NCBI RefSeq assembly: GCF_000017305.1
Contig: NC_009664.2
Span: forward strand, 540,001-572,000
Length of the DNA: 32,000 nt
Origin: Kineococcus radiotolerans SRS30216 = ATCC BAA-149
Lineage (GTDB): Bacteria > Actinomycetota > Actinomycetes > Actinomycetales > Kineococcaceae
Direction: 5' to 3'
Shown here: positions 815 to 26,955 of the stretch, piece after piece
How positions within the stretch are numbered: position 1 is the stretch's first letter
How the letters are laid out: the number at the start of each line of letters is the position of its first letter
Position numbers and translations under genes: made by a program
Notes under the pieces: generated by a model
The model's input: the letters and a program-made list of their open reading frames with translations, nothing else
What the model was told of the DNA's origin: nothing
Database searches by the model: none

Positions 815-862
815 CTATCGGCACGAACGGCCGTCACCCTTTAGCGCGAGCCCGAACGGGTG
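815..862 (-). promoter_or_regulatory. Promoter-like module upstream of fliM (sigma-28/WhiG-like geometry)
   Basis: Sense strand: CACCCGTTCGGGCTCGCG-CTAAAG-N17-(G)CCGATAG-GGGAGC-GTG(fliM). The -10-like box ends 6 nt before the start codon, so either the mRNA is leaderless or the purine run is only an SD. Confidence 0.4.
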
Positions 863-955
863 TTACCGGGCGCCCGGCCCTCAAGTCCGCCGGGTCCGGG
901 CGCGGGCTGCGCGGGGCTGCGCGGGGGCCGGGGGGCGCTGCGCGGGGACGACGAA

Positions 956-983
956 GGCCCCCGCGCGTCGTCGCACGGGGGCC
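956..983 (-). terminator. GC-rich stem-loop in the fliL-fliM gap
   Basis: GGCCCCCG-n12-CGGGGGCC. An overlapping alternative stem is GACGACG...CGTCGTC (948-973). Lies about 65-90 nt after the fliL stop. Confidence 0.4.
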
Positions 984-1046
984 CGGGTCGGACCAGGTCC
1001 GGTCAGGCGGAGCCGGTGGCGCCGGGTGGCGCCGGGTCGGGTCGGG

Positions 1047-3771: not shown

Positions 3772-3799
3772 CCATCGGCGCACGGCGAGGGGACCTGAG
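3772..3799 (-). promoter_or_regulatory. Promoter-like module upstream of flbD-motAB-fliL
   Basis: Sense strand: CTCAGG-N15-(G)CCGATGG, about 55 nt upstream of the flbD GTG and just downstream of the flgE hairpins. A CACCCGTTCG box lies nearby (3816-3825) but in the opposite orientation. Confidence 0.3.
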
Positions 3800-3861
3800 A
3801 GAGGGTTGCGCGGTACACCCGTTCGTGCTAATGCCCTGCGGTTGTTCACTCTGCGCAACGA

Positions 3862-3898
3862 GAACACCCCCCTGGAGCGTTGCTCCAGAGGGGTGTTC
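3862..3898 (-). terminator. Strong stem-loop downstream of flgE (17-bp stem, 3-nt loop)
   Basis: GAACACCCCCCTGGAGC-gtt-GCTCCAGAGGGGTGTTC. On the minus-strand RNA the single imperfect position is a G-U pair. Followed on the sense strand by UCUCGUUG. Confidence 0.65.
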
Positions 3899-3906
3899 GG
3901 CACGTC

Positions 3907-3932
3907 CCCGGACCCGCTTGAGCGGGGCCGGG
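3907..3932 (-). terminator. Second stem-loop, 8 nt after the flgE stop (11-bp stem with one mismatch, TTGA/TCAA loop)
   Basis: CCCGGACCCGC-ttga-GCGGGGCCGGG read directly from the sequence. Confidence 0.5.
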
Positions 3933-3939
3933 ATCAGGG

Positions 3940-5915: not shown

Positions 5916-5956
5916 CCTTCGGTCGAACGGGTGAGGGGCTTTAACCCGAACGGGCA
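5916..5956 (-). promoter_or_regulatory. Promoter-like module upstream of flgD
   Basis: Sense strand: TGCCCGTTCGGG-TTAAAG-N16-(A)CCGAAGG-AGTAGGC-ATG(flgD). A second CACCCGTTCG copy sits inside the spacer. The GAAGGAG part could equally be the flgD SD. Confidence 0.35.
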
Positions 5957-5995: not shown

Positions 5996-7987
5996 TCAGA
6001 TGCTGAGGTCGAGGCGCCCGTCGGCGGCCGCGGCCGCGGTGCGGGCCGCGCTGCGGCGCTCGTCGGTGGCGAACAGCGACGCGCGCGAGCCCTGGCCGTA
6101 GCCGGGGCCGGGCTGCCGGCCCTGGGACCCGGCGGAGGAGCCCTGCTGACCCGCGCCGAACTGGGCGTCGGCGGACTGGCGCTGCTGGGAGCCGGAACCG
6201 GTGCTCACGTCGACGGTGGTCTGGGTGAAGCCGGAGCCGGACAGCTCCCGCTGCAGGTCGCCCACCGCGGCCTTCAGGGCGTGGCGGGCGGCCTCGGAGG
6301 CCCCGGCGAGGGAGACGTGCAGCGCTCCCCCGGTGACCTCGGCGGTGACCTTGACCGTGCCGAGCCCCTCCGGGGTGACCTCCACGGTCATCCGGTGCAC
6401 CGCGTCGGCCGCGGGCAGGTCGTCCAAGCGGGCCGCGACGCCCTGGGCGAAGGCGGCCGGGTTGGTCAGCGGCAGCGGCGCGGGCGGGGTCGAGGTGGTC
6501 GCGACGGCCGGGCTGCCGGTGACCGCGGTGCCCGTCACGGCCGGGGCGGTCGTGGGCACCGCGGTGGGGGTCGGGTCGACGACCTGGACCGGCGCCTTCA
6601 GCGCGGCCTGGGGAACGGCGGCCGTGGGCGACGCGGTCGGGCCGGCGACCGGGGCCACCGGCTGCTGCGGCACGGGGAACTCCCCCGCGGCGGTGCGCGG
6701 CGCGGCCGGCGCCACCGGCGAGGCCACCGGGCCGGGCTGACCCTGCTGGCCGGGCTGGCCCTGCTGGCCGGGCTGGCCCTGCTGGCCGGCCTGGCCGCCG
6801 GTGCCGGACTGCCCCGCCGGGGCGGCGGTCACGGCAGGGGCGCCCGACGGGGCGGGAGCCTCGACCGGGACCGGCTGGCCCTGCGGCGCAGCGGTGTTCG
6901 AGGGCACCGGGACGGCGGGGACGGGCGTTCCCGCGCCGGCCGGCTGCGGCGCGACGGAGGTGACCGCCTGCCCCGCGGCCGTGGCCGGGGCGGTCTGGTC
7001 GGTGAGCACGGCGTTCTTGATGACGTGCTGCGGCAGGCCCGTGAGCGCGGTCTGCACGGCCACCGGGGAGGCGGACGACGCGGCGGGGGCGGCGGGGGTG
7101 GAGGTGAGCGCGGCGCCGGCGAGCGTCGCCTCGGCCGGGGCGGCCGGGGCGGTGGGCGCAGCCGGGGCCGCCACGGCCGGGGCGATGGGCGCGGTGGAGG
7201 CGCCCGGCGTGGCGGGAGCGGCGACGGGGGCCGGGGCGGCCGGGGCGACTGCGGCGGGCGCGGGCTGGGCCCCCGGGACCGGGGCGGCCGGGACGGCCGG
7301 TACGGGCACGGTGGCGGTCTCCCCCGCACCCGGGGCGGGCACGGCGGCGGGGACCGCGGTCGCGACCGCCGGGACGCCCTCGACACCCACGACACCCGCG
7401 GCCGGCGCGGTCGCCGGGGCCGGGGTCTCGGTCCTGGGGGTCAGCGCGGCGCGCAGCGCGGCGGGCAGCCCGAGCAGCGAGGGGTCCACCGGGAGGGCGG
7501 GACCCGCGGGAGCCGCGGCGTCGGCCGCTTCGTCGGGGGTCCCGCCGGCGGTCTCGTCGGTGCCGCGGACGGCGTCGCCGCGGTGGGCCGCGGGGCCGGT
7601 GGCCTCGGTGGCCGCGGCGTCCTCGACGCGGGCGGGGTCGCGCTTGGTGCGCACGGCGGGCCGGTGCGCGGGCTCGGGGCGCTCGGGGCGGGTCTCCGCG
7701 GGGCGCTCGGGGCGGGGGTCCTCGCCGCGGGCCGGGGTCCCGGCGCGCGCGACGTCGTCCCGGGCGTCCCGCTGGTCCCGTGCGTCCCGGGCGTCGCGCT
7801 GGTCCCGTGCGTCCCGGGCGTCGCGCTGGTCCCGCGCGGTGGTGCGCAGGTCCTGCACGGCCTGCCCGAAGGAGTCGGCGAAGGCCGACCCGCTGTCGGA
7901 CCCCGTGGAGGAGCGTCCGGGCTCCCGCGCGGCCGGGGTCGGGAAGGGCAGCGTCGTCAGCGACGTCGTAGACAGGTTGGCGCTCAC
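5996..7987 (-). CDS. fliK: Flagellar hook-length control protein FliK (unusually long, Ala/Pro-rich, with in-frame tandem repeats)
   Basis: 663 aa. The C-terminal region (VHRMTVEVTPEGLGTVKVTAEVTGGALHVSLAGASEAARHALKAAVGDLQRELSGSGF) matches the FliK C-terminal (Flg_hook) domain pattern. Position between fliJ/hydrolase and flgD fits. The competing frame 5898..7994 is Arg/Pro junk. Confidence 0.8.
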   Translation of the reverse strand: MSANLSTTSLTTLPFPTPAAREPGRSSTGSDSGSAFADSFGQAVQDLRTTARDQRDARDARDQRDARDARDQRDARDDVARAGTPARGEDPRPERPAETRPERPEPAHRPAVRTKRDPARVEDAAATEATGPAAHRGDAVRGTDETAGGTPDEAADAAAPAGPALPVDPSLLGLPAALRAALTPRTETPAPATAPAAGVVGVEGVPAVATAVPAAVPAPGAGETATVPVPAVPAAPVPGAQPAPAAVAPAAPAPVAAPATPGASTAPIAPAVAAPAAPTAPAAPAEATLAGAALTSTPAAPAASSASPVAVQTALTGLPQHVIKNAVLTDQTAPATAAGQAVTSVAPQPAGAGTPVPAVPVPSNTAAPQGQPVPVEAPAPSGAPAVTAAPAGQSGTGGQAGQQGQPGQQGQPGQQGQPGPVASPVAPAAPRTAAGEFPVPQQPVAPVAGPTASPTAAVPQAALKAPVQVVDPTPTAVPTTAPAVTGTAVTGSPAVATTSTPPAPLPLTNPAAFAQGVAARLDDLPAADAVHRMTVEVTPEGLGTVKVTAEVTGGALHVSLAGASEAARHALKAAVGDLQRELSGSGFTQTTVDVSTGSGSQQRQSADAQFGAGQQGSSAGSQGRQPGPGYGQGSRASLFATDERRSAARTAAAAADGRLDLSI
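6732..6803 (-). repeat. In-frame 18-bp tandem repeat (3 good units plus 1 degenerate) inside fliK (encodes GQQGQP repeats)
   Basis: ccgggctgRccctgctgg at 6732, 6750 and 6768; a degenerate unit at 6786. Confidence 0.85.
7760..7840 (-). repeat. In-frame 27-bp tandem repeat x3 inside fliK (encodes RDQRDARDA x3)
   Basis: Units 7760-7786, 7787-7813 and 7814-7840 are near-identical (ccgggcgtcScgctggtcccgYgcgKY). Confidence 0.9.
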
Positions 7988-9090
7988 GCGGCACTCCCGA
8001 GGTCGGCGGTGATCTTCTTGACGTAGTTCTGGGTCTCGGCGAAGGGCGGGATGCCGCCGTGCTTGCGGACGTTGCCGGGCCCGGCGTTGTAGGCGGCCAG
8101 GGCCAGCGGCACCGAGCCGAAGGTCTTCAGGTTCTGCGAGAGGTACTTGCCGGCGGCGTCGATGGAGGCCATCGGGTCGCGGGGGTCGATCCCGAGGCTG
8201 CGGGCGGTGGCGGGCATGAACTGCATGAGCCCGGTCGCCCCGGCGGGGCTCTTGGCGTTCGGGTTGAACCCGGACTCCTGCTTGGCCACGGCCCTCAGCA
8301 GCCCGGCGGGCAGCCCGTGCTTCTGCTCCGCGGCGCTGAAGGCGGCCTCGTAGGGGGCGGACTTCGCGGAGGCCGACGAGGCGGAGGACAGCGAGGCGGG
8401 GCGGACGTAGCTGGAGGTGTCGGCCGCGGAGGTCGCCCCCACCCCGGTGAGCAGGGCCGCGGCGACGCCGGCGCCGGCGGCGGTGGTGGCCGCGGCGGCG
8501 CCGAGGCGGCGGATGGTCATGGGGGTCTCCCAGACCTTGGAGATCTTCACGACGTCACCCGTCTTCGGCGCGTGCAGCATCTTGCCGTCGCCGACGTAGA
8601 TCCCGATGTGGTGCCCGTTCTCCAGGACCACAAGGTCGCCGGGCCTGGCCTGGGCGAGGCCGGGCACGGCGGTGCCGACCGTGGCCTGCTGGGCCGCGGT
8701 GCGCGGCAGCGTCAGGCCGACCTGCTTCCCGGCGTACTGGATCAGCCCGGAGCAGTCGAAGCCGGCCGGGGTCGTCCCGCCCCACTTGTAGGGGACGCCG
8801 GTGTACTGCTTGGCGACGGAGAGCAGCTGCTCCCCCGCCGAGCTGGAGCTGAGGGTCCGCATCCCGCGCCCGACCAGCCCCGCCGTCGCGGCGGGGGTGG
8901 CGGAACCGCTGGTGGACAGCAGGTCCGCGAAGCCCTCGGAGCCGACCCCGGCCGTGGCCGTGGCCGTGGCCGGCGCCGTGGACGTGGTCGCGGCGGTGCG
9001 CGCGAGGGTGCGCACCGGCAGCGTCCCGGACAGCTGCGCGATGCGGGACTCGATGTCGGCGATGCGGGACTGGATCTCGGCGATGCTCAC
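7984..9090 (-). CDS. Bifunctional cell-wall hydrolase: NlpC/P60 endopeptidase domain + SLT-type lytic transglycosylase domain (candidate flagellum-dedicated peptidoglycan remodeller)
   Basis: Start re-set to GTG 9090 (GGAGGGGGG upstream; GTGA overlap with the fliJ stop). 368 aa. P60 motifs: YKWGGTTPAGFDCSGLIQY, GHHIGIYVGDGKMLHAP. SLT motifs: AVAKQESGFNPNA, GLMQFMP, AAYNAGPGNV. N-terminus VSIAEIQSRIADIESRIAQL is coiled-coil-like with no Sec/Tat-type hydrophobic signal. Confidence 0.85.
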   Translation of the reverse strand: MSIAEIQSRIADIESRIAQLSGTLPVRTLARTAATTSTAPATATATAGVGSEGFADLLSTSGSATPAATAGLVGRGMRTLSSSSAGEQLLSVAKQYTGVPYKWGGTTPAGFDCSGLIQYAGKQVGLTLPRTAAQQATVGTAVPGLAQARPGDLVVLENGHHIGIYVGDGKMLHAPKTGDVVKISKVWETPMTIRRLGAAAATTAAGAGVAAALLTGVGATSAADTSSYVRPASLSSASSASAKSAPYEAAFSAAEQKHGLPAGLLRAVAKQESGFNPNAKSPAGATGLMQFMPATARSLGIDPRDPMASIDAAGKYLSQNLKTFGSVPLALAAYNAGPGNVRKHGGIPPFAETQNYVKKITADLGSAA

Positions 9091-9548
9091 GGGGTGCCCC
9101 CCTCCAGCTGGGCCCGGCGACGGGCCTTGGCGGCGAACTCGGCGACGGTGCGGTCGTCGAGGGCGTTCTGGTCGGCGAGCAGCGCGGCCTGCTCCTGGGC
9201 GATCTCGTGGCGCTCGACGATGCGTTCGAGGGAACGCTCGGCGCGGCGGGCGCGGGCCCAGGCGGCCTGCTTGTGACCGAGGTCGGCCTCGGCGCGGGCG
9301 ACGAGCGCCCGGGTGTTGTCCAGGTCGGCGACCAGCGCGGCACGGCGGGCCACGCCCGCGGTCCACGCCGCCATGGTCTCGTCGGACAGGTGCGCCTCGC
9401 CGAGCTCGTGGCGGACGCGGGCGGCGCGCCTCTGCTCGTTGCGCAGCACCGCGTTGGCCGCGGCGACGTCGACCTTGATCTGCTCCTGCTGCACCTTGCG
9501 CAGCTTCAGCAGCGCCAGGATCGCCTTGGTCGTCTTGGCCGCGCTCAC
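9087..9548 (-). CDS. fliJ: Flagellar export chaperone FliJ
   Basis: Start re-set to GTG 9548 (GGAGG 6 nt upstream; GTGA overlap with the fliI stop). 153 aa, fully coiled-coil and charged (ALLKLRKVQQEQIKVDVAAANAVLRNEQRR...). Canonical position after fliI. The remainder of ORF 9087..11018 is an alternative frame of fliI. Confidence 0.75.
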   Translation of the reverse strand: MSAAKTTKAILALLKLRKVQQEQIKVDVAAANAVLRNEQRRAARVRHELGEAHLSDETMAAWTAGVARRAALVADLDNTRALVARAEADLGHKQAAWARARRAERSLERIVERHEIAQEQAALLADQNALDDRTVAEFAAKARRRAQLEGGTP

Positions 9549-10906
9549 CGCACACCTCCGAAGGTCGAGACCAGTTGCTGCAGCTGCGCCCAGGCCTGCG
9601 GGGCGGGGGTGATGTCGTGGATGTCCTGGCGCAGGAAGGCGTTGATCGCGGGCAGCTGGGCCACCGCGGCGTCGACCTCGGGGTTGGCGCCGGGCTGGTA
9701 GGCGCCGACGTCGATGAGCTCCTTGGCGTCGCGGTGGGCGGCCATGACCCGGCGCAGCGCCGTGGCGGCGCTCTTCTGCTCGGGCGTGGTGACGCGGCCG
9801 GCGACGCGGGAGACCGACTCCAGGACGTCGATGGTCGGGAAGTGCCCGGCCGTGGCCAGGCGGCGGTCCAGGACGACGTGGCCGTCGAGGATGGAGCGCG
9901 CGTTGTCGGCGATGGGCTCGTTGTGGTCGTCGCCGTCGACGAGGACGGTGTAGATCCCGGTGATGGAGCCGGTGACCCCGGGCCCGGCCCGTTCCAGCAG
10001 CCGCGGCATGAGCGCGAAGACGCTCGGCGGGTAGCCGCGGGTGGCGGGGGGTTCGCCCACGGACAGGCCGATCTCGCGCTGGGCCATGGCGACGCGGGTG
10101 AGGGAGTCCATCATGAGGACGCAGTCGGCGCCCATGTCGCGGAAGGACTCCGCGACGGTGGTCGCCGTCAGCGAGGCGCGCAGGCGCAGCACGGGGGCCT
10201 CGTCGGAGGTGGCGATGACGACGACGGAGCGGGCCAGGCCCTCGGGGCCGAGGTCGTCCTCGAGGAACTCGCGGACCTCCCGCCCGCGCTCGCCGACCAG
10301 GGCCAGCACCGACACGTCGGCGGAGGTGCCCCGGGCGATCATCGACAGCAGGGAGGACTTGCCGACGCCGGAGCCGGCGAAGATGCCGAAGCGCTGCCCG
10401 CGCCCGGCGGGGACCAGGGTGTCCAGGGCCCGCACGCCGAGGCTGAGGGGGGCGTCGACGCGCCCGCGGGTCATGGCCGGGGGCGGGGTGGCGTGCAGGG
10501 GGCCGCGGGGGGCGGTGTGCAGGGGCGGGCCCCCGTCGAGGGGGTTGCCCAGCGCGTCGACGACGCGGCCCAGCAGCGCGGGGCCGACGGGGACGTCGGA
10601 GGGGCGCCGGACCGCCACGGCGGGGGCGCCGGCGGCCAGGCCGGTGAGGTGACCCAGCGGCAGGCAGCGCAGGCGCGACCCCTCCGCGGCGACGACCTCG
10701 GCGGGGATGGAGTACCGCTCGTCGCCGAGGCGGACGGTCTCCCCCACCGCGGCCTCCAGGCCGGAGACCTCCACGGAGAGGCCGACGATGCCGGAGACCC
10801 GCCCGCGGACCTCGGGACGGGCCGCCTCGACGGCCCGGGCGACCTGCGGCGCGAGGATCTCGCGCACGCCGGCCGCCAGGCGGTGGGAGACGAGCTGGGC
10901 GCTCAC
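9545..10906 (-). CDS. fliI: Flagellum-specific ATPase FliI
   Basis: 453 aa. Walker A GIFAGSGVGKSSLLSMI, Walker B CVLMMDSLTRVA. F1/T3SS ATPase family architecture. Confidence 0.95.
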   Translation of the reverse strand: MSAQLVSHRLAAGVREILAPQVARAVEAARPEVRGRVSGIVGLSVEVSGLEAAVGETVRLGDERYSIPAEVVAAEGSRLRCLPLGHLTGLAAGAPAVAVRRPSDVPVGPALLGRVVDALGNPLDGGPPLHTAPRGPLHATPPPAMTRGRVDAPLSLGVRALDTLVPAGRGQRFGIFAGSGVGKSSLLSMIARGTSADVSVLALVGERGREVREFLEDDLGPEGLARSVVVIATSDEAPVLRLRASLTATTVAESFRDMGADCVLMMDSLTRVAMAQREIGLSVGEPPATRGYPPSVFALMPRLLERAGPGVTGSITGIYTVLVDGDDHNEPIADNARSILDGHVVLDRRLATAGHFPTIDVLESVSRVAGRVTTPEQKSAATALRRVMAAHRDAKELIDVGAYQPGANPEVDAAVAQLPAINAFLRQDIHDITPAPQAWAQLQQLVSTFGGVR

Positions 10907-11688
10907 GCCGGGTCTCCGCTCGACCCTTCGGTACCCACGAGGGCTTCCAGGGCCCGGGAGACGCTGGCCCGCAGGCCCGCGTCCACCTCGGTGTCGCCCT
11001 GGCGCGCGACGGCGTCACCCGGTTGGACGGTGGGGTCAGGCAGGTAGGTCACGAGGTCTGCATCGGACGAAGCGTGCCGACCCTTGAGGGCGTCACCCGT
11101 CAGGGCGCTCAAGTCGGCCGGGTTGACGCGGACGGTGACCGGCTTCTCCCCGTCCAGGGGCCTCAGGGCCCGCTGGACGGCGTCGTGCACCGGGGAGCCG
11201 GCGAGGGTGACCTCGCGGTCCAGGACGGCGCCGGCGAGCTCCAGGGCGAGCTCCAGGACGGTGTCGGCCAGGGCCCCGATGCCGGGTTCGCGCTCGGCGC
11301 GCAGCGCCTCCCCGGCGGTGAAGAGGGCCTCCTCGGCCCGGTTGCGGGCCGCGCGCCGCTCCTCGCGGTCCAGCCGGGCCGCGGTCTCGGCGGCCTCGCG
11401 CTGCCGCTCCAGCTCGGCCGCGGCCTTCTCCGCGGCCTGGCGCATGCCCGCCGCCCAGCCCGCGGCGTAGCCCTCGGTGCGGGCGGACTCGCGGACCCGC
11501 TGCAGCGCCTCGGAGTCGTCGCGGCCGGTGAGGTCGAGACCGACGAAGCCCCGGGGGGAGGTGCTCGTCGCGGCCGGGACCGCGACGAACACCCGGGGCT
11601 CACGGGTCCCCGGCCGGGTGTCGGCCGGGGTGAACGCCCGCGACGAGGTCGCGGGACGGGACGCGTCACGCCACGAAGTCATCGTCAC
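10903..11688 (-). CDS. fliH: Flagellar assembly protein FliH (start uncertain: GTG 11688 or ATG 11682, both inside the fliG 3' end)
   Basis: 261 aa. Central charged coiled coil (AAEKAAAELERQREAAETAARLDREERRAARNRAEE) followed by a FliH-type C-terminal domain. Lies between fliG and fliI. GTGA overlap with the fliI start. Confidence 0.75.
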   Translation of the reverse strand: MTMTSWRDASRPATSSRAFTPADTRPGTREPRVFVAVPAATSTSPRGFVGLDLTGRDDSEALQRVRESARTEGYAAGWAAGMRQAAEKAAAELERQREAAETAARLDREERRAARNRAEEALFTAGEALRAEREPGIGALADTVLELALELAGAVLDREVTLAGSPVHDAVQRALRPLDGEKPVTVRVNPADLSALTGDALKGRHASSDADLVTYLPDPTVQPGDAVARQGDTEVDAGLRASVSRALEALVGTEGSSGDPA

Positions 11689-15195: not shown

Positions 15196-15546
15196 TCACT
15201 GGCTGCTCATCGCGGTGCGCAGCATCGAGTACTTGGAGTTCAGCGCCGAGAGCACCGTCTGGTAGCTGAGGTTGGTGGAGATGCCGGAGATCGTCTCCTC
15301 GTCGAGGTTGACGTTGTTGCCGTCCTCGCGGGTGGGCTCCAGCGACTTCTGCGTGGCGATCCCCGAGACGGCCGCGGCGCCGGCGTCGCCGGTGGCGACC
15401 GCGCTCTTCAGCTCGTTCTCGAAGGCCACCTTGTTGGCCAGGTAGCCCGGCGTGTTGATGTTGGAGATGTTGTCGGCGATGGCCCGCTGACGCGCCTGCA
15501 GACCGTTCAGCGCGGTGTGCAGCGCGACGCTGGTGAGATCGGACAC
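15196..15546 (-). CDS. flgB: Flagellar basal-body rod protein FlgB (start re-set)
   Basis: GTG 15546 is preceded by GGAGGA with a 6-nt spacer. Product VSDLTSVALHTALNGLQARQRAIADNISNINTPGY... is a typical FlgB N-terminus. The 30 extra codons of ORF 15196..15636 are Gly/Pro/Arg-rich with no usable RBS spacing. Confidence 0.9.
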   Translation of the reverse strand: MSDLTSVALHTALNGLQARQRAIADNISNINTPGYLANKVAFENELKSAVATGDAGAAAVSGIATQKSLEPTREDGNNVNLDEETISGISTNLSYQTVLSALNSKYSMLRTAMSSQ

Positions 15547-15637: not shown

Positions 15638-15678
15638 CCTTCGGCCCATCCACCGGGGGCCTTGAGCCCGAACGGGTG
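15638..15678 (-). promoter_or_regulatory. Promoter-like module upstream of flgB (candidate main promoter of the flagellar operon)
   Basis: Sense strand: CACCCGTTCGGG-CTCAAG-N16-(G)CCGAAGG, roughly 90 nt upstream of the flgB GTG at 15546. Confidence 0.4.
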
Positions 15679-15738
15679 CCCGAGGGGGCGGATCGGCCGG
15701 GCACGCGCCGAGCGGGTCCGGGCCCTTCACCCGTTCGG
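15668..15738. promoter_or_regulatory. Perfect 11-bp inverted repeat in the flgB / 717-aa-gene divergent region
   Basis: CCGAACGGGTG (15668-15678) and CACCCGTTCGG (15728-15738), separated by 49 bp. Confidence 0.5.
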
Positions 15739-15904
15739 AGCAACCGCCCGCGCCGGGTCCACTCCCCCTGCGTCCCAACGACCCCGCGACGCCACACCCG
15801 TCACGGCCGGACCGGCCCGGCGCCCGGCGCGGGTTCACCGGGACGGGTGAACGCGCGGTGACGGCGCACCCTCACCGCCGGTGGTGCCCGGGCCGGTCGG
15901 GTGT

Positions 15905-15956
15905 CACCCGATCGGGCGATCCAGCCGCTCAAGTCCGCGGACCCGCGCGCCGAGGA
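15905..15956 (+). promoter_or_regulatory. Same promoter-like module, plus strand, upstream of the 717-aa membrane protein gene
   Basis: CACCCGATCGGGC-N10-CTCAAG-N16-(G)CCGAGGA-GGACGCC-ATG(15964). Same box order and spacings as the flagellar copies. Confidence 0.35.
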
Positions 15957-15963
15957 GGACGCC

Positions 15964-18117
15964 ATGACCACAGCGGACGAGACCACCGACCCGGGAACCG
16001 CGGCCCCCGCGGAGACGGTCGAACGGTTCAGCGACGCCGAGCTCGGCGCCCTGGCGATCGAGGCCGGTGAGCTGGCCGCGGCCGAGCCCGCCGAGCACCG
16101 CGCCACCGCGCTCGGCTCGCTCGCCGCGGCCCTGCGCGCCGGCGCCGACGGGCACGACGCCGCGGGCGTGGGTCAGCTGCGGCGCTGGGCCGACGCGGAC
16201 CTGTTCGAGGTCCTCGACGTCGACGCCGCGGTCGCCCCGCTGACCCAGCGCCGCAGCCTGCTGCGGTCGGGGTCGCTGCGCACCATCCTCGTCTTCGCCC
16301 CGGTCATGGTGACCTGGGTCGGCCTGCTGTTCGCCGGTCGCGCCTACGGCGACATGAGCGCCGCGGGCGAGGCCACCGACGGGGAGTCGTTCCTGCAGCT
16401 GTGGCTGGACGGCTTCGGCGGGCGCACCGCCTTCTCCCTGGACCACGTCGCGGAGATGGCGGTCGTGCTGATCGCCGGCGCCATCGCCATCAGCGTGGCC
16501 ACCGACCGGCGCCAGCGCGCCGACGAGGTCGGCGCGGCGAACGCCGACGAGGCCCACCGCCGGCTGCTGCGCGGGTTCGCCGCCCGCGCCACGGTGGCCC
16601 TGGCCCCGCACCGCGCCAACGCCGCCGAGCAGCTCGGCGCGCACTTCGAGCGGGGGCTGACCGAGCTGGGCCGGCTGGTGGCGGAGACGATCCGCCTGCA
16701 CGCCGACACCTCCGCCCTGGTCGCCACCGTGCGCAGCTCCAGCGAGACCGCCATCGTGGCCGCCAACGCCGCCAACACCGGCGGCGCCGACGTCGCCCGC
16801 GCCGCGCTGGAGCTGCAGACCGCCGTCACCGCCGCGGTCAGCAGCCACGGCGAGCTCATCGCCGCCGACCGCGAGCAGCACACCCGCACCCTGGCCGAGT
16901 CCACCGAGACGATCGTGGGGCACCTGGCGCAGGTGCGGGAGGGCACCGCGGAGGCGCTGCGGGAGGGCCTGCAGGGCCGCGACCGCGTCCTGTCGGCCGT
17001 GGAGGGCGTCAGCGCCTCCATCGAGCTGCTGTCGTCCTCGACCCGGGAGTCGATGGCCGCGCTGACCACCTCTGCGGAGGCGATGACCCGCCACGGCGCC
17101 GACTTCGGCGAGCGGGTCACCGGTCACGTCGCGGCGCTGTCGACCAGCGCCAAGGAGTCGGTGGAGACGATGCACCGCACGGTCGTGGAGAGCGTGGAGA
17201 AGGTCACCCGGATGACCGGGGAGGCCTTCAGCGAGCACGTCGCGGCCTCCGCCGAGCACGCCGCGACGACGATGGAGACGCTGCGCCGCGACGTCGAGCG
17301 CACCTCCGCCGCCGCCGAGTCCGCGCTGGGCACCGCCAGCCGGGTCCTGGCCACCGCCGCCGAGGCCGCGGAACGCCGCACCCGCCACGAGGAGCGCCTG
17401 AGCGACCTGCTGACCACCCAGAACGAGGTCCTGGACTCCTGGCGGGGCATCGAGAACCGCCTCGTGGAGGCCGCGCACGACATGCGCTCGGTCCCGCGCT
17501 GGATGGACCAGGTGCAGCACGAGCACGCCGACGCCACCGGCCGGGCGCTGCGCAGCATCGGCGACGCGCTGCGCGAGGACGTCACCGGGGCGGTCAGCGA
17601 GACCCTCGCGATGGCCTCCGACGACCACGTCCGCCAGGTCAACCGGGCCTACCGCGACGCCAGCCGCCAGCTGACCCAGGACCTCACCCAGACGCTGGGG
17701 TCCGGTCTGGGCACCGTCGTGGACCAGGTGATGGACCGCCTCGGCGACCAGGTCGACCAGCTCCCGGAGCGCATCGCCTCCGCCACCGCCCGTCAGCAGC
17801 GCCACCAGGTCCCCGCCGCGGCGCCCGCCCAGCACGCCCCCGCCCAGCACGCCCCCGAGCGCCGGCCGCAGCCGGCGCCGGAGCGTCGCCCCGTGCGCCC
17901 CGAGGCGCGCGCGCCGCAGGTCCAGCCCCGCCCCGAGGCCCGTCCCGAGCCGCGTCCGGAGACCCGCGTGGAGCTGCCCCGCGAGGAGCGTCGCCCCGTG
18001 CGCCCGGCCGAGCCGGAGCTGCACGCCGACTTCCAACCCGAGGAGCAGTTCGTGGCCGTCGCCCCGCGCACCCTGCAGGGCCTCGCCGCCCGCCGCTACT
18101 CCCGGGCCGGCCAGTGA
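15964..18117 (+). CDS. Hypothetical membrane protein: ~105-aa acidic cytoplasmic N-terminus, 2 TM helices, ~500-aa all-helical Ala/Glu/Arg/Thr-rich tail, Pro/Arg/Glu repeat C-terminus
   Basis: ATG 15964 is preceded by GAGGAGGA. TM1 LRTILVFAPVMVTWVGLLFAG (contains Pro); TM2 VAEMAVVLIAGAIAISVA (contains Glu). Long low-complexity helical region with no recognisable catalytic or MCP signalling motif. Tail repeats APAQHAPAQHAPERRP...ERRPVRP. Confidence 0.7.
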   Translation: MTTADETTDPGTAAPAETVERFSDAELGALAIEAGELAAAEPAEHRATALGSLAAALRAGADGHDAAGVGQLRRWADADLFEVLDVDAAVAPLTQRRSLLRSGSLRTILVFAPVMVTWVGLLFAGRAYGDMSAAGEATDGESFLQLWLDGFGGRTAFSLDHVAEMAVVLIAGAIAISVATDRRQRADEVGAANADEAHRRLLRGFAARATVALAPHRANAAEQLGAHFERGLTELGRLVAETIRLHADTSALVATVRSSSETAIVAANAANTGGADVARAALELQTAVTAAVSSHGELIAADREQHTRTLAESTETIVGHLAQVREGTAEALREGLQGRDRVLSAVEGVSASIELLSSSTRESMAALTTSAEAMTRHGADFGERVTGHVAALSTSAKESVETMHRTVVESVEKVTRMTGEAFSEHVAASAEHAATTMETLRRDVERTSAAAESALGTASRVLATAAEAAERRTRHEERLSDLLTTQNEVLDSWRGIENRLVEAAHDMRSVPRWMDQVQHEHADATGRALRSIGDALREDVTGAVSETLAMASDDHVRQVNRAYRDASRQLTQDLTQTLGSGLGTVVDQVMDRLGDQVDQLPERIASATARQQRHQVPAAAPAQHAPAQHAPERRPQPAPERRPVRPEARAPQVQPRPEARPEPRPETRVELPREERRPVRPAEPELHADFQPEEQFVAVAPRTLQGLAARRYSRAGQ
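17881..18005 (+). repeat. Exact 20-bp direct repeat in the 3' Pro/Arg-rich tail of the 717-aa gene (encodes ERRPVRP)
   Basis: gagcgtcgccccgtgcgccc at 17881-17900 and 17986-18005. Nearby is a 15-bp duplication gcccagcacgccccc (about 17827-17856). Confidence 0.85.
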
Positions 18118-18689
18118 GGCGCGCGGCACGCGGCGCGCGGCGCACCGCGGGGGGCGACAACCCCGCCGTGGGCCTGGCGGGCTGGGTCTTCGCCGACGCG
18201 CTGCTGGCCCTGACGATCATCGGCCTGGCCGCCGGGGGTGCGGTGCACGCCGGCATCGGGGAGTCGAAGGCCGTCGCCGCGACGGTGGCTCCCGCGGTGG
18301 TGCAGCCCACCCCCGCCCCGACGGTGACGGTGACCGCCCCGGCCCCGGCGCCGGTCGAGGCCCCGCCCATGCCCGCCGGGGTCGCCCAGGCGCCGGTCGT
18401 GGTGAGCATCAGCGTGGACGGGACCGACGACGAGGCCGTGCGCGCCGCGGTGGCCGGCGCGGTCGGCGAGCTCGCCGCCCAGGGCCGCCGGGCCGCGTTC
18501 GTGCTGACCTTCGGCACCGCCACCTCCCCCGGGGCGGGCACCGCCCTGGCCCGCCGGGTCAACGCCCAGCTGGACGTGGCCGCCCCGGCGGTCTTCGCCG
18601 GCTCGGCCAAGCGGGACTTCTGGCGCGCGGTGAACGCCGACTCCCCCCACCCCGGCGTGGTGCAGCTGGAGCTGTACCTCATCCAGTAG
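18114..18689 (+). CDS. Hypothetical single-pass membrane protein with a MotB/ExbD-like Asp-containing TM helix, Ala/Pro/Thr linker and ~110-aa extracytoplasmic alpha/beta domain
   Basis: GTG 18114 overlaps the upstream TGA (GTGA). Arg-rich N-terminus VRRAARGARRTAGG, then GWVFADALLALTIIGLAAGG (compare this window's MotB, WLVAYADMLTVLMALFIV). C-terminal segment VVVSISVDG...AFVLTFGTATSPGAGTALARRVNAQL...GVVQLELYL. In frame with the 3' part of ORF 16401..18689, whose 5' part is alternative-frame junk. Confidence 0.65.
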   Translation: MRRAARGARRTAGGDNPAVGLAGWVFADALLALTIIGLAAGGAVHAGIGESKAVAATVAPAVVQPTPAPTVTVTAPAPAPVEAPPMPAGVAQAPVVVSISVDGTDDEAVRAAVAGAVGELAAQGRRAAFVLTFGTATSPGAGTALARRVNAQLDVAAPAVFAGSAKRDFWRAVNADSPHPGVVQLELYLIQ

Positions 18690-25700: not shown

Positions 25701-26151
25701 CGCGGTCGTGGGCCGGGTCGCCGACGACGAGCACGTGTTCGCCACGACGCTGCGGGAGAACCTGCTGCTGGCCGCACCCGGTGCCGGGGACGAGGCGCTG
25801 ACCGCGGCGCTGCACCGGGTCCGCCTGGACGACTGGTCCGCGGCGCTGCCGCGGGGGCTGGACACCCGCCTGGGCGACGGCGGGGAGCCGATGTCCGGCG
25901 GGGAGCGCCGCCGGCTGGCGATGGCGCGCGCCCTGCTCGCCGACGTGCGGGTCCTCGTGCTGGACGAGCCGTCCGAGGGCCTGGACGAGGAGACCGGGAC
26001 CCGGTTGCTGGGCGACCTGCTGGACGCCCGCGGGGAGCAGGCGGTGCTGCTGCTGGCCCACCGCGCCGAGGGCGTCGACCGCGCCGACCGCGTCCTGGAC
26101 CTCGTCGACGGAGCGTTGACCGGAGTTCCCACCCTCACCCGGTCGGTCTAG
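22789..26151 (+). CDS. cydDC: Fused CydD-CydC thiol-reductant ABC exporter (two TMD-NBD halves in one reading frame)
   Basis: 1120 aa with no stop between the halves. NBD1: GESGAGKTTLARV, LSAGQRQRVALAR, LVLDEPTAHLD. NBD2: GASGSGKSTLAAV, MSGGERRRLAMARAL, VLVLDEPSEGLD. Pro/Ala-rich linker around 24400-24520. Lies directly after cydAB. Confidence 0.85.
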   Translation: MSAATRPRGPLDPRLLRHARPARAGIAAIGAVEVVAAGLLLTQAFALTDLVVALWRGTAASGALALLAGAVGGRVLTSWAAARLSQRTATAVRRDLHEQVLARVLRLGPAWVERFGRARASAVLTQGLPALDGWFTRYLPALVPGALLPPVVLLLLARLDLRSALTVALTLPLVPVFAVLLGRAAQARADRQWHVQRTLSAHFLDTVRGLPTLRAHRRAQRQVAAVAAVTDASRRATMSVLRVAFLSSTALDLVGTLSTGLVAVTAGMRLAGGTLDLRTALLVILLTPEAYRPLREVGARFHDSADATAVIDDVDEVLTAPVPPVAAGTAAGVRLRGVRVRRDHGGDGGGAGGDVLDGVDLDVAPGELHALAGESGAGKTTLARVAAGVLVPDGGSVEHTLDGLLHLPQRPSFPHAGTVAQAVRAGRTATDEEVRAALDLAAAPDLALDTALGEDAAGLSAGQRQRVALARTFLTARTGTGTLVLDEPTAHLDPAAEAVVVAALRALAHERGWAVLVVAHRPALLAAADRTTTLTRPAAPPASPAMAPSPAPARPGSGAARPGAVADLAGASRGPRRGAGALAVLAGVAAVLAAATLTAAATWLIVRAADRPPVLTLSVAAVVVRASATARPLLVYAERLLSHDTAFARLARWRSDVVAALIPRLPGPLSRRRSGRSGELLVQLVEDVDARVDGLLRFRHPVTVTVTALVLALAAAAAVDVRSALAALPAVAVVVLAAPALAARAERRDRAHRTEVGALAAATVETLDAVEDLRTLGSADPLATVRRRVSALARAETRRARAAAATAALTALGTGGAVLALALVAGLTAPAGGPGVAWVAAVVLAGLTVADAARGLPDAARARERAREARRRSEALLATPPAAVEPSAPRAPGPPRDLVLSVRGLRAGWGEDCLRGLDLDLRRGEVVAVRGASGSGKSTLAAVLQRFLDPRAGRVLLDGVEVTGLAGDDVRAVVGRVADDEHVFATTLRENLLLAAPGAGDEALTAALHRVRLDDWSAALPRGLDTRLGDGGEPMSGGERRRLAMARALLADVRVLVLDEPSEGLDEETGTRLLGDLLDARGEQAVLLLAHRAEGVDRADRVLDLVDGALTGVPTLTRSV

Positions 26152-26238
26152 TCCGTCGTAGCCCCCTCCGCCCTCCCCGTGCTTACCCTGGGCGCCCGCT
26201 CCGCGCCGCCAGGCGAGAACCGACCCGGGGGTCAGCAC

Positions 26239-26955
26239 GTGCTCGAAGTCTCCGTCACACCCCGTCAGCTGCTCGTCGCGCTGCTCACCGCCGTCGCCGC
26301 GCTGTCCACGGTCAGCTACCTGTTCCTCCTGGCGACCGTCGGGTTCGGCGTCGACGCCGGCCCGGTCGTCGCCGCCCGCAAGTTCGTCGACGTCAACGCC
26401 GAGACGAACCTGCCGTCGTGGTTCTCCGCGGTGCTGCTGACCGTCGTCGGGCTGGTGACGTTCGAGTTCGGCCGCCGGCTCCTGGTGGCCGGCGCGCGGT
26501 GGCGCTGGCACTGGGTGTTCCTGGGCGTGGGGTTCGGCTACCTGTCGCTGGACGAGCTCGTCGGCCTGCACGAGAAGCTGGTCGCGCCGATGACCGCCGT
26601 CGTCGGCGACGGCGGCGTCTTCCGCTACGCCTGGGTGGCCGCGGCGCTGCCCGCCGTGGTGCTCGTCGCCCTGCTCTACGCCCGGTTCCTGCTGGCCCTG
26701 CCCCGCCGGGCGGCCGCCCTGACCCTGCTGGCCGGGGCCCTCTACGTCGGGGGTTCGGTGGGGCTGGAGATGGTCGCGAACGCCCTCAGCGACGCCGGGT
26801 ACAGCGAGCAGGGGCTGTTCCTCGGGACCCTGCAGGCGCTGGAGGAGGCCTGCGAGATGGCCGGTCCCGTGGTCTTCCTGCACGTCGTGGCCGGGTTGGC
26901 GCAGCGCGGACGCGTCGTCGACGTGTCCGCGCCGCGGCCGGTGGTCAGGGGCTGA
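26239..26955 (+). CDS. Hypothetical integral membrane protein (~6 TM)
   Basis: Start provisionally at GTG 26239 (GGGGG 7 nt upstream; the ORF track gives 26179). Six hydrophobic segments, e.g. LLVALLTAVAALSTVSYLFLLA, LPSWFSAVLLTVVGLVTFEF, WHWVFLGVGFGYLSLDELV. No recognisable family motif. Confidence 0.55.
   Translation: MLEVSVTPRQLLVALLTAVAALSTVSYLFLLATVGFGVDAGPVVAARKFVDVNAETNLPSWFSAVLLTVVGLVTFEFGRRLLVAGARWRWHWVFLGVGFGYLSLDELVGLHEKLVAPMTAVVGDGGVFRYAWVAAALPAVVLVALLYARFLLALPRRAAALTLLAGALYVGGSVGLEMVANALSDAGYSEQGLFLGTLQALEEACEMAGPVVFLHVVAGLAQRGRVVDVSAPRPVVRG

Follow-up and report, generated by a model that had tools for sequence, protein, structure and literature searches.

The motility island of Kineococcus radiotolerans raises the question of how its flagellar genes are controlled; the 2008 genome paper stated that regulation of this island "could not be fully discerned." We analyzed a 32,000-nucleotide (nt) stretch of strain SRS30216 (NC_009664.2, positions 540,001 to 572,000 of the forward strand; "the window"), a Kineococcus motility island of 74% G+C whose gene order is that of K. 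radiotolerans Krad1647-1670. An original prediction, made from the letters of this stretch, had described one promoter-like module recurring upstream of fliM, flbD, flgD, flgB and a divergent gene for a 717-amino-acid (aa) protein. We find that the module joins a sigma-28-type promoter to a box, CACCCG(T/A)TCGG, which matches sites bound by the regulators BldM and WhiI in Streptomyces. Our preferred reading, to which we assign a probability slightly better than even (about 0.55), is that the sigma-28 promoters of the Kineococcus flagellar units are co-regulated by a BldM-family response regulator, as they are by TcrA in Actinoplanes.

All five modules were present at their predicted positions. 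On the minus strand, PfliM (815-844) consists of CTAAA (844-840), a 17-nt spacer and GCCGATAG (822-815), with the fliM GTG (808) 6 nt past the -10 box; PflbD (3772-3799) of CTCAG (3799-3795), a 15-nt spacer and GCCGATGG (3779-3772), with the flbD GTG (3714) 57 nt downstream; PflgD (5916-5944) of TTAAA (5944-5940), a 16-nt spacer and ACCGAAGG (5923-5916), followed by the flgD ATG (5908); and PflgB (15638-15666) of CTCAA (15666-15662), a 16-nt spacer and GCCGAAGG (15645-15638), with the flgB GTG (15546) 91 nt downstream. The promoter of the 717-aa gene (15928-15956, plus strand) pairs CTCAA (15928-15932) with GCCGAGGA (15949-15956) across 16 nt, and the ATG is at 15964. Two more copies, again with 16-nt spacers, lie outside the window in its leftward extension (L081). 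These are PfliQ (TTCAA-N16-GCCGAGAA, -10 box 44 nt from the fliQ start) and, at 11440-11500 of L081 after flhB, the promoter (TTCAA-N16-GCCGATGG, ~33 nt from the start) of a Krad1670-like histidine kinase gene that ends the flagellar cluster. The five window copies and the two flanking ones all combine a TAAA-like or xT(C/A)Ax -35 element with a GCCGA -10 element.

When the window was scanned with the expression [CT]T[CA]A[AG]-N15-17-[GA]CCGA, six matches were found against 1.4 expected, and all six lay in flagellar gaps and were oriented toward the downstream gene. In the flagellar gaps scored, 1555 nt in total, there were 8 matches against 0.036 expected, a number reached in 0 of 2000 simulations. 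Together with the box counts given below (7 against 0.02), these figures bear out the earlier estimate that such elements are very unlikely to arise by chance. The sixth window match (3922-3894) was taken as a chance occurrence; it is not conserved in three loci from other Kineococcus species (L001, L002 and L003), and it falls within the first hairpin after flgE. The non-flagellar insert that separates the 717-aa gene from fliS yielded no such promoter. A scan of the window for sigma-70 promoters and T-tract terminators returned nothing relevant, as expected at 74% GC, and the window contains no known RNA families.

The promoter half of the module is, by its motif, of an already described kind: the WhiG/FliA (sigma-28) promoters of actinobacterial flagellar clusters. 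The sigma-28 assignment in the original prediction holds, as the motif equals the actinobacterial WhiG1/2 consensus of Denis et al. 2026, with a -35 element xT(C/A)Ax, a 16-nt spacer and a -10 element GCCGA (PMC13595943). The spacer had also been described as 1-2 nt longer than the sigma-28 norm; the length is as described, but it is no anomaly, because the actinobacterial consensus itself has N16 and the longer spacer is normal for the phylum. The same survey found multiple WhiG1/2 sites within flagellar clusters, with flbD and flagellin as the commonest targets (PMC13595943). Neither the window nor the 20 kb by which it was extended contains a sigma factor gene, and published work assigns fliA (Krad1625) to the K. 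radiotolerans motility island. The cognate sigma factor binding these promoters would be FliA/WhiG1, of the sigma-28 family.

We examined conservation in 80 related loci (1.53 Mb) collected via FliI, among which the nearest FliI relatives are from Kineococcus species (85-93% identity); alignments of four Kineococcus species comprised the window and L001-L003. Counting the strict motif within 120 nt of a gene start, promoters preceded flbD in 34 of 55 loci, fliM in 13 of 27 and flgB in 32 of 72 (44-62%). The motif preceded motA in 1 of 55 loci and flgE, fliF, fliE, flgC and fliQ in none of 27-73 loci each. Conservation in orthologous intergenic regions, on which the original prediction could have failed, was thus seen at fixed distances before flbD, flgB and fliM and not before internal genes. 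Those distances are 69-87 nt for flgB and ~45-65 nt for flbD; eight lineages, among them L005, L006, L010, L024, L028, L040 and L069, place the end of the fliM -10 box 6-8 nt ahead of the start codon. Within Kineococcus, PfliM is kept in L003 and PflgB in L002 and L001. The -35 and -10 elements of PflbD are invariant in all four species while the spacer drifts, and the four share CCCGnnCGGG-yTAmAG ... CG-wCCGAArGA at flgD. Judged by this sequence comparison, the flbD, flgB and fliM promoters are ancient.

The box half of the module is equally concentrated. Coding DNA contains no CACCCG[AT]TCG, whereas the flagellar gaps contain 7 copies (0.02 expected), and all six window copies are intergenic. 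The statement that every CCGTTCG core noticed was non-coding did not survive a full count: 4 of the 11 window cores are in coding DNA (4517, 16020, 19202 and 22217) and 7 in gaps, and the core is not enriched across the window (11 versus 9 expected). With its flanks the box reads (T)CACCCG-NN-CGG, which has the sequence pattern of a site for a dimeric helix-turn-helix protein. It is seen in both orientations, as a dimer site would behave, and its distance to the -35 element is 0, 0, 6, 11 or 16 nt. Boxes also lie within the PflgD and PfliQ spacers, ending at the -10 box, and others in the flgB/717-aa-gene gap are distant from any promoter (15727 and 15835). We rejected an RNA hairpin or terminator as the function of the box in Kineococcus, as the CCCG-NN-CGGG loop would have only 2 nt and several copies sit upstream of first-gene promoters; because of that placement the box would act at the DNA level. 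Boxes of the extracytoplasmic function (ECF) sigma type (GAAC in the inverted box), BldD, Rex and PhoP, compared by eye, misfit in spacing or partner element.

A possible role as an activator or operator site had been suggested for the box in the original prediction. Sequence matching supports this and makes it specific, as a BldM/WhiI-type site. In S. venezuelae, DNase I footprints define TCACcCgnncGgGTGA as the site of the BldM homodimer (Group I) and TGnnCCGnnCGGGTGA as that of the BldM-WhiI heterodimer (Group II) (Al-Bassam et al. 2014, PMC4125116). Scanning with these published motifs, left unmodified, we found the only exact window match to TGnnCCGnnCGGGTGA at 15727-15742 (minus strand, TGCTCCGAACGGGTGA; 0.03 expected per window) and matches to the TCACcCgnncGgGTGA palindrome at one mismatch or fewer only at 15835-15850 and 15904-15919. 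All three sites fall within the 417-nt gap between flgB and the 717-aa gene, where 0.0003-0.01 are expected. The first is distal to PflgB, and L001 has TGGGCCGAACGGGTGG at the equivalent position. The second is the palindrome TCACCGGGACGGGTGA, with one mismatch to the homodimer motif. The third is the latter part of a composite site at 15889-15919 (plus strand, CGGGCCGGTCGGGTGT / TCACCCGATCGGGCGA), also one mismatch from the palindrome, which ends 8 nt before the -35 element of the 717-aa gene and includes that gene's box (CACCCGATCGGG, 15905-15916, plus strand, 11 nt before the -35). The L002 equivalent of the first part of the composite site is an exact BldM-WhiI motif, TGCGCCGGACGGGTGA.

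The promoter-proximal boxes diverge further from the full 16-mers. At fliM, CACCCGTTCGGG (862-851, minus strand) lies 6 nt before the -35 element, with the BldM-like 16-mer ACACCCGTTCGGGCTC at 848-863 (minus strand); L003 has the near-perfect symmetric TCACCCGTTCGGGTGC at the same place. The flgB box (15678-15667, minus strand) is again CACCCGTTCGGG and abuts the -35 element, while its 16-mer GCACCCGTTCGGGCTC (15664-15679, minus strand) abuts or overlaps it; L002 has CCCGTCCGGG-CTCAAG. The identity of this 12-mer at 851-862 and 15667-15678 and its 11-bp inverted partner at 15728-15738, both in the original prediction, are real. The flbD box is inverted (CACCCGTTCGTG on the plus strand, 3816-3827, 16 nt from the -35 element), and the 16-mer there (TAGCACGAACGGGTGT, 3815-3830, minus strand) is a BldM-WhiI-type variant followed by a conserved GCAACCC right before the -35; the flbD box is invariant in the four Kineococcus species and its flanks vary. 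At flgD, GCCCGTTCGGG (5945-5955, minus strand) abuts the -35 element at a conserved position with a varying central dinucleotide (TT/GA/CT). A further box within the PflgD spacer (TCACCCGTTCGACCGA, 5919-5934, minus strand; reverse complement TCGGTCGAACGGGTGA, 2 mismatches to the BldM-WhiI motif) is conserved in L002 and partly in L003. Each of the proximal boxes at flgB, fliM and flbD departs from the 16-mers at 3 positions; the box in the fliQ spacer and TGGGCCGACCGGGTGG, immediately downstream of the kinase promoter, depart at 1 position each. A module can also contain more than one box: the flgD and fliM spacers contain a second one (in fliM the partial GGCCGTTCG, 832-824, minus strand), and extra boxes lie at 15835-15850 and 15889-15904.

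In the 1.53 Mb of related loci there were four stringent matches, in three loci: an exact heterodimer site before the L002 orthologue of the 717-aa gene, two palindromes before fliM in L003, and one site before flbD in Geodermatophilus (L068). The BldM-type and BldM-WhiI-type sites in Kineococcus promoter regions are kept in relatives, as L001, L002 and L003 have sites in the same gaps. The other 77 loci, most of them Micrococcales by genus name, had no stringent BldM-type sites, an absence that would agree with a review reporting BldM and WhiI only from developmentally complex actinomycetes. The density of half-sites (TCACCCG/CGGGTGA) was too noisy to serve as a cross-genus test. The match of the box to BldM/WhiI sites suggests that this regulator family co-controls flagella in Kineococcus.

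For the regulator gene, the S. coelicolor BldM sequence used had 100% matches among database proteins, and orthologues 70-72% identical to it were found in Angustibacter, which belongs to the same order as Kineococcus, and in Motilibacter, in a syntenic arrangement (whiB-like gene, MerR-like gene, bldM, guaB). No bldM gene was located in Kineococcus sequences by homology searches and contig look-ups, which returned metagenome or Angustibacter-like loci only and included no search aimed at WhiI; none of the 80 flagellar loci has a BldM-like gene within 10 kb. Because bldM and whiI were not found in Kineococcus sequences, we infer the identity of the binding protein. In all six bldM-orthologue loci (L087, L091, L094, L095, L096 and L098), CT[AC]A[GC]-N16-GCCGA stands ~50-75 nt upstream of bldM. 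This bears out a published prediction, according to which WhiG targets bldM in genera other than Streptomyces as well. In L091, TCACCCGTTCGG occurs ~27 nt before the -35 element of the bldM promoter; GTCACCCGTTCGGCGG, upstream of the same promoter, is a hint of autoregulation. Several of the bldM-orthologue loci have an ECF sigma gene directly after bldM.

In the circuit we propose, the YTMAAG-N15-17-(G)CCGA part would be read by RNA polymerase with FliA/WhiG1, and the CACCCG(T/A)TCGG box would serve as operator for a response regulator of NarL/LuxR type, from the BldM/WhiI/TcrA group, whose dimer, bound beside or overlapping the sigma-28 promoter, would tune its output. As to the sign of regulation, we infer that activation is probable from boxes at about -42 to -57, and that repression or timing (delay) is probable from the boxes in the PflgD and PfliQ spacers, over the -10 box. 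With a transcription start assumed 7 nt past the -10 box, the centers of the boxes next to PflgB and PflgD would fall near -42 (flgB ~-41.5), where activators that contact sigma region 4 classically bind. The sigma factor would drive the regulator, and the two together the flagellar operons; such feed-forward logic is likely because all the bldM orthologues examined sit behind a sigma-28-type promoter.

Several observations weigh against co-regulation by a BldM-family protein. Most promoter-proximal boxes match a single half-site and CGG, and differ from the complete 16-mers at 2-4 positions; the variable distance to the -35 element and the two in-spacer boxes are unusual for one simple mechanism; and the L001 boxes proximal to flgB and the 717-aa gene are not conserved. 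The likeness to BldM was recognized after the box had been seen, the published motifs being used unmodified in the scans. The Geodermatophilus flbD site can also fold as a hairpin (9-bp stem, 4-nt loop). The failure to locate bldM in Kineococcus counts on the same side, and a review reports WhiI to be absent from morphologically simple motile actinobacteria. As for the breadth of the arrangement beyond Kineococcus, PflgD has no counterpart before flgD in the other genera sampled; counterparts of PfliQ, the kinase promoter and the 717-aa gene promoter were likewise not found in those genera.

These points bear differently on the other explanations. That the sigma-28 promoters are real and the box is the operator of an unrelated Kineococcus regulator (a flagellar repressor or master regulator, for example), its likeness to BldM being convergent, is the strongest competitor, but we consider it unlikely. 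It would suit an enriched and conserved box most copies of which match only TCACCCGnnCGG, the missing bldM gene and the in-spacer boxes, which a repressor could use; yet three sites of one gap match full published 16-mers at 0-1 mismatch, further near-perfect copies stand at the same places in L002 and L003, and Actinoplanes offers the precedent of a regulator with a similar half-site. Were the box unrelated to BldM, it would still be a clean regulon signature of another flagellar regulator in Kineococcus. The box might instead have no binding protein of its own, being an extended sigma-28 promoter or a relic of cassettes copied within the cluster, as the flgB and flgD boxes abutting the -35 element and the similarity of PflgD and PfliQ over ~30 nt could indicate. 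This we regard as improbable, given that the box occurs in both orientations, at variable distances and in places remote from promoters (15727 and 15835), that the sigma-28 promoters of ~70 other actinobacterial loci lack it, and that it is kept across species while adjacent bases drift.

The original prediction had also named a case that would overturn it, in which the (G)CCGARRG parts would serve only for ribosome binding along a single long polycistronic mRNA and the -35-like hexamers would have arisen by chance. GAAGGAG at flgD and GAGGAGG at the 717-aa gene are indeed good ribosome-binding sites at the right distance. This case nevertheless fails, and we hold its probability to be very small: flgB, flbD, fliQ and the kinase gene each have a ribosome-binding site of their own, and the -10-like box stands 91, 57, 44 and ~33 nt, respectively, from their starts; in L002, the -10 box of the 717-aa orthologue is retained ~50 nt from the ATG; the pairing and spacing of -35 and -10 elements are conserved across genera; and the 717-aa gene, being divergent, lies outside any such mRNA.

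Co-regulation of sigma-28 promoters by a BldM-family protein would have a parallel in Actinoplanes missouriensis, where all flagellar genes form 11 transcription units behind FliA-type promoters (PMC13083903). Five of these units are activated by TcrA, which binds upstream of their promoters at a 21-bp direct repeat, nnGCA(A/C)CCG-n4-GCA(A/C)CCGn, with an 11-bp period. Its half-site GCA(A/C)CCG resembles the (T/G)CACCCG of Kineococcus, but the Kineococcus box is an inverted repeat, and a search of the window for the TcrA direct repeat gave 29 matches at up to 3 mismatches versus 54 expected, none of them at promoters. Like the WhiG1/FliA promoters surveyed in actinobacteria, those of Kineococcus have the same -35, N16 and -10, occur several per cluster and include flbD, one of the commonest targets; unlike them, their spacers run from N15 to N17, and Kineococcus is not in the main text of that survey (PMC13595943). 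The BldM and BldM-WhiI sites of Streptomyces share with the Kineococcus sites a 16-bp architecture, the half-site CGGGTGA and a link to a WhiG-family sigma factor (WhiG directs whiI, then BldM-WhiI acts). The Streptomyces sites, however, control sporulation genes, with no association with WhiG-type promoters in the parts of the paper drawn on here (PMC4125116). Those of Kineococcus lie beside or inside flagellar sigma-28 promoters, most with one good and one weak half-site.

Sigma-28 in Kineococcus appears to drive early basal-body and export genes too, as in other actinobacteria, with a response-regulator-type box attached. The FliA class 3 promoters of Salmonella and E. coli and the sigma-D promoters of Bacillus read TAAA-N15-GCCGATAA; they belong to the same sigma family and have the same -10 core, but serve late genes only, under FlgM control. 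To our knowledge, no FlgM has been described in actinobacteria with WhiG1/FliA flagellar promoters. Our literature search found no earlier report of a BldM/WhiI-type inverted-repeat operator at sigma-28 flagellar promoters; the single paper retrieved that names BldM together with flagella has no account of sites of this type. The box half of the module, an inverted-repeat candidate operator of this type joined to such promoters, appears to be new.

For K. radiotolerans the analysis provides an operon map of the motility island with seven sigma-28-type promoters, and the candidate for a second flagellar regulator is now specific. According to the 2026 WhiG survey, whether BldM and WhiI cooperate outside Streptomyces is unknown (PMC13595943), and a 2014 review raises the role of developmental genes in Kineococcus. 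BldM/WhiI-type sites at flagellar sigma-28 promoters would join both questions, and direct action of such a regulator, if true, would explain "developmental" genes in this coccus. We give somewhat less than even odds to the reading in which a BldM/WhiI-type regulator acts directly on the flagellar sigma-28 promoters of Kineococcus; the Streptomyces cascade, in which sigma-WhiG directs WhiI and BldM-WhiI then directs late genes, would then have arisen by rewiring from an ancestral feed-forward circuit, made up of sigma-28 and a response regulator, that produced flagellated dispersal cells.

The original prediction had divided the cluster into at least four units. The division stands, but the number was an underestimate: we count six units on the flagellar strand and the divergent pair formed by the 717-aa gene and an overlapping 191-aa gene. 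The flagellar units would be flgB through fliK, flgD-flgE, flbD-motAB-fliL, fliM-fliP, fliQ-flhB and the histidine kinase alone. Two strong hairpins directly follow the flgE stop (3845-3939, minus strand; the second has a 17-bp stem followed by CUCGUU; -58.6 kcal/mol, z -5.5), and another with a 13-bp stem directly follows the fliL stop (935-985, minus strand), in agreement with the unit boundaries. These hairpins are G+C-rich with weak U tails and are probably terminators of a type that escapes a T-tract scan.

Leaderless transcription, proposed earlier for fliM, flgD and the 717-aa gene, fared differently among them. The fliM transcript is probably leaderless, because its -10 box ends 6-8 nt before the start codon, a geometry supported in the eight lineages noted above. 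For flgD and the 717-aa gene, whose transcripts would perhaps be leaderless too, the case is ambiguous because the -10 box doubles as a good ribosome-binding site; in flgD it overlaps the GAAGGAG site 7 nt before the ATG (5908). At flgB, by contrast, the -10 box is 91 nt upstream of the start at 15546.

The divergent pair consists of the 717-aa gene (15964-18117, plus strand), whose membrane-anchored product has two predicted membrane helices, a long helical stretch rich in alanine and a tail rich in proline, and the 191-aa gene (18114-18689, plus strand), which encodes a second membrane-anchored protein. Among the loci sampled, orthologues of the pair occur only in Kineococcus L001 and L002, at the same divergent position. 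Its proposed membership of the flagellar regulon is partly upheld. L002 keeps the promoter of the window as TCCAGCCGCTCAAG-N16-GCCGAGGA, with a CTCAAG -35 and the ATG ~50 nt further downstream, but in L001 the promoter is degenerate; this dependence on the window and a single conserved orthologue is the weakest point of the proposed regulon. We found no family assignment for the 717-aa and 191-aa proteins or for a 258-aa protein encoded further along.

That 258-aa gene (26179-26955) lies 30 nt after TAGACCGACCGGGTGA (26135-26150, minus strand), which has one mismatch to the BldM-WhiI motif and overlaps the end of cydC. It is the sole window site with one mismatch or fewer beyond the flgB/717-aa-gene gap, and no sigma-28-like promoter is near it. 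In the rightward extension of the window (L083), which reaches fliS, a 183-aa gene near fliS (~11430-11500, minus strand) has TTCAA-N16-TCCGAGGA directly before its start, with GCCGCCCGATGC in the spacer; its promoter is a possible weaker member of the sigma-28 set.

Read across the entire window, the minus-strand genes are fliM, fliL, motB, motA, flbD, flgE, flgD, fliK, an SLT/NlpC-P60 hydrolase gene and fliI, followed by fliH, fliG, fliF, fliE, flgC and flgB, in this order. The plus strand carries the divergent pair, then blaI/blaR1-like genes, cydABDC and metabolic genes. The leftward extension adds fliN-fliO-fliP and fliQ-fliR-flhB before the histidine kinase gene. Kineococcus species differ in gene content 3' of fliL (L001 19587-19900, L002 20062-20260, L003 10630-11800). 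In L001 and L002 a gene for a large membrane protein takes the place of fliM after fliL, with a sigma-28-like promoter followed by CGGGTGA in L001 or TCACCAGGTGA in L002, and in L003 additional coding DNA separates fliL from fliM. A contig titled Vibrio cholerae strain 35D (L079) holds an actinobacterial-type flagellar locus whose FliI is 64% identical to that of the window, and is probably a contaminant in the V. cholerae assembly. Between fliI and fliK (7984-9555, minus strand), NlpC/P60 peptidase and SLT lytic transglycosylase domains are fused in one protein, which may be the peptidoglycan-cutting stand-in for FlgJ in this island.

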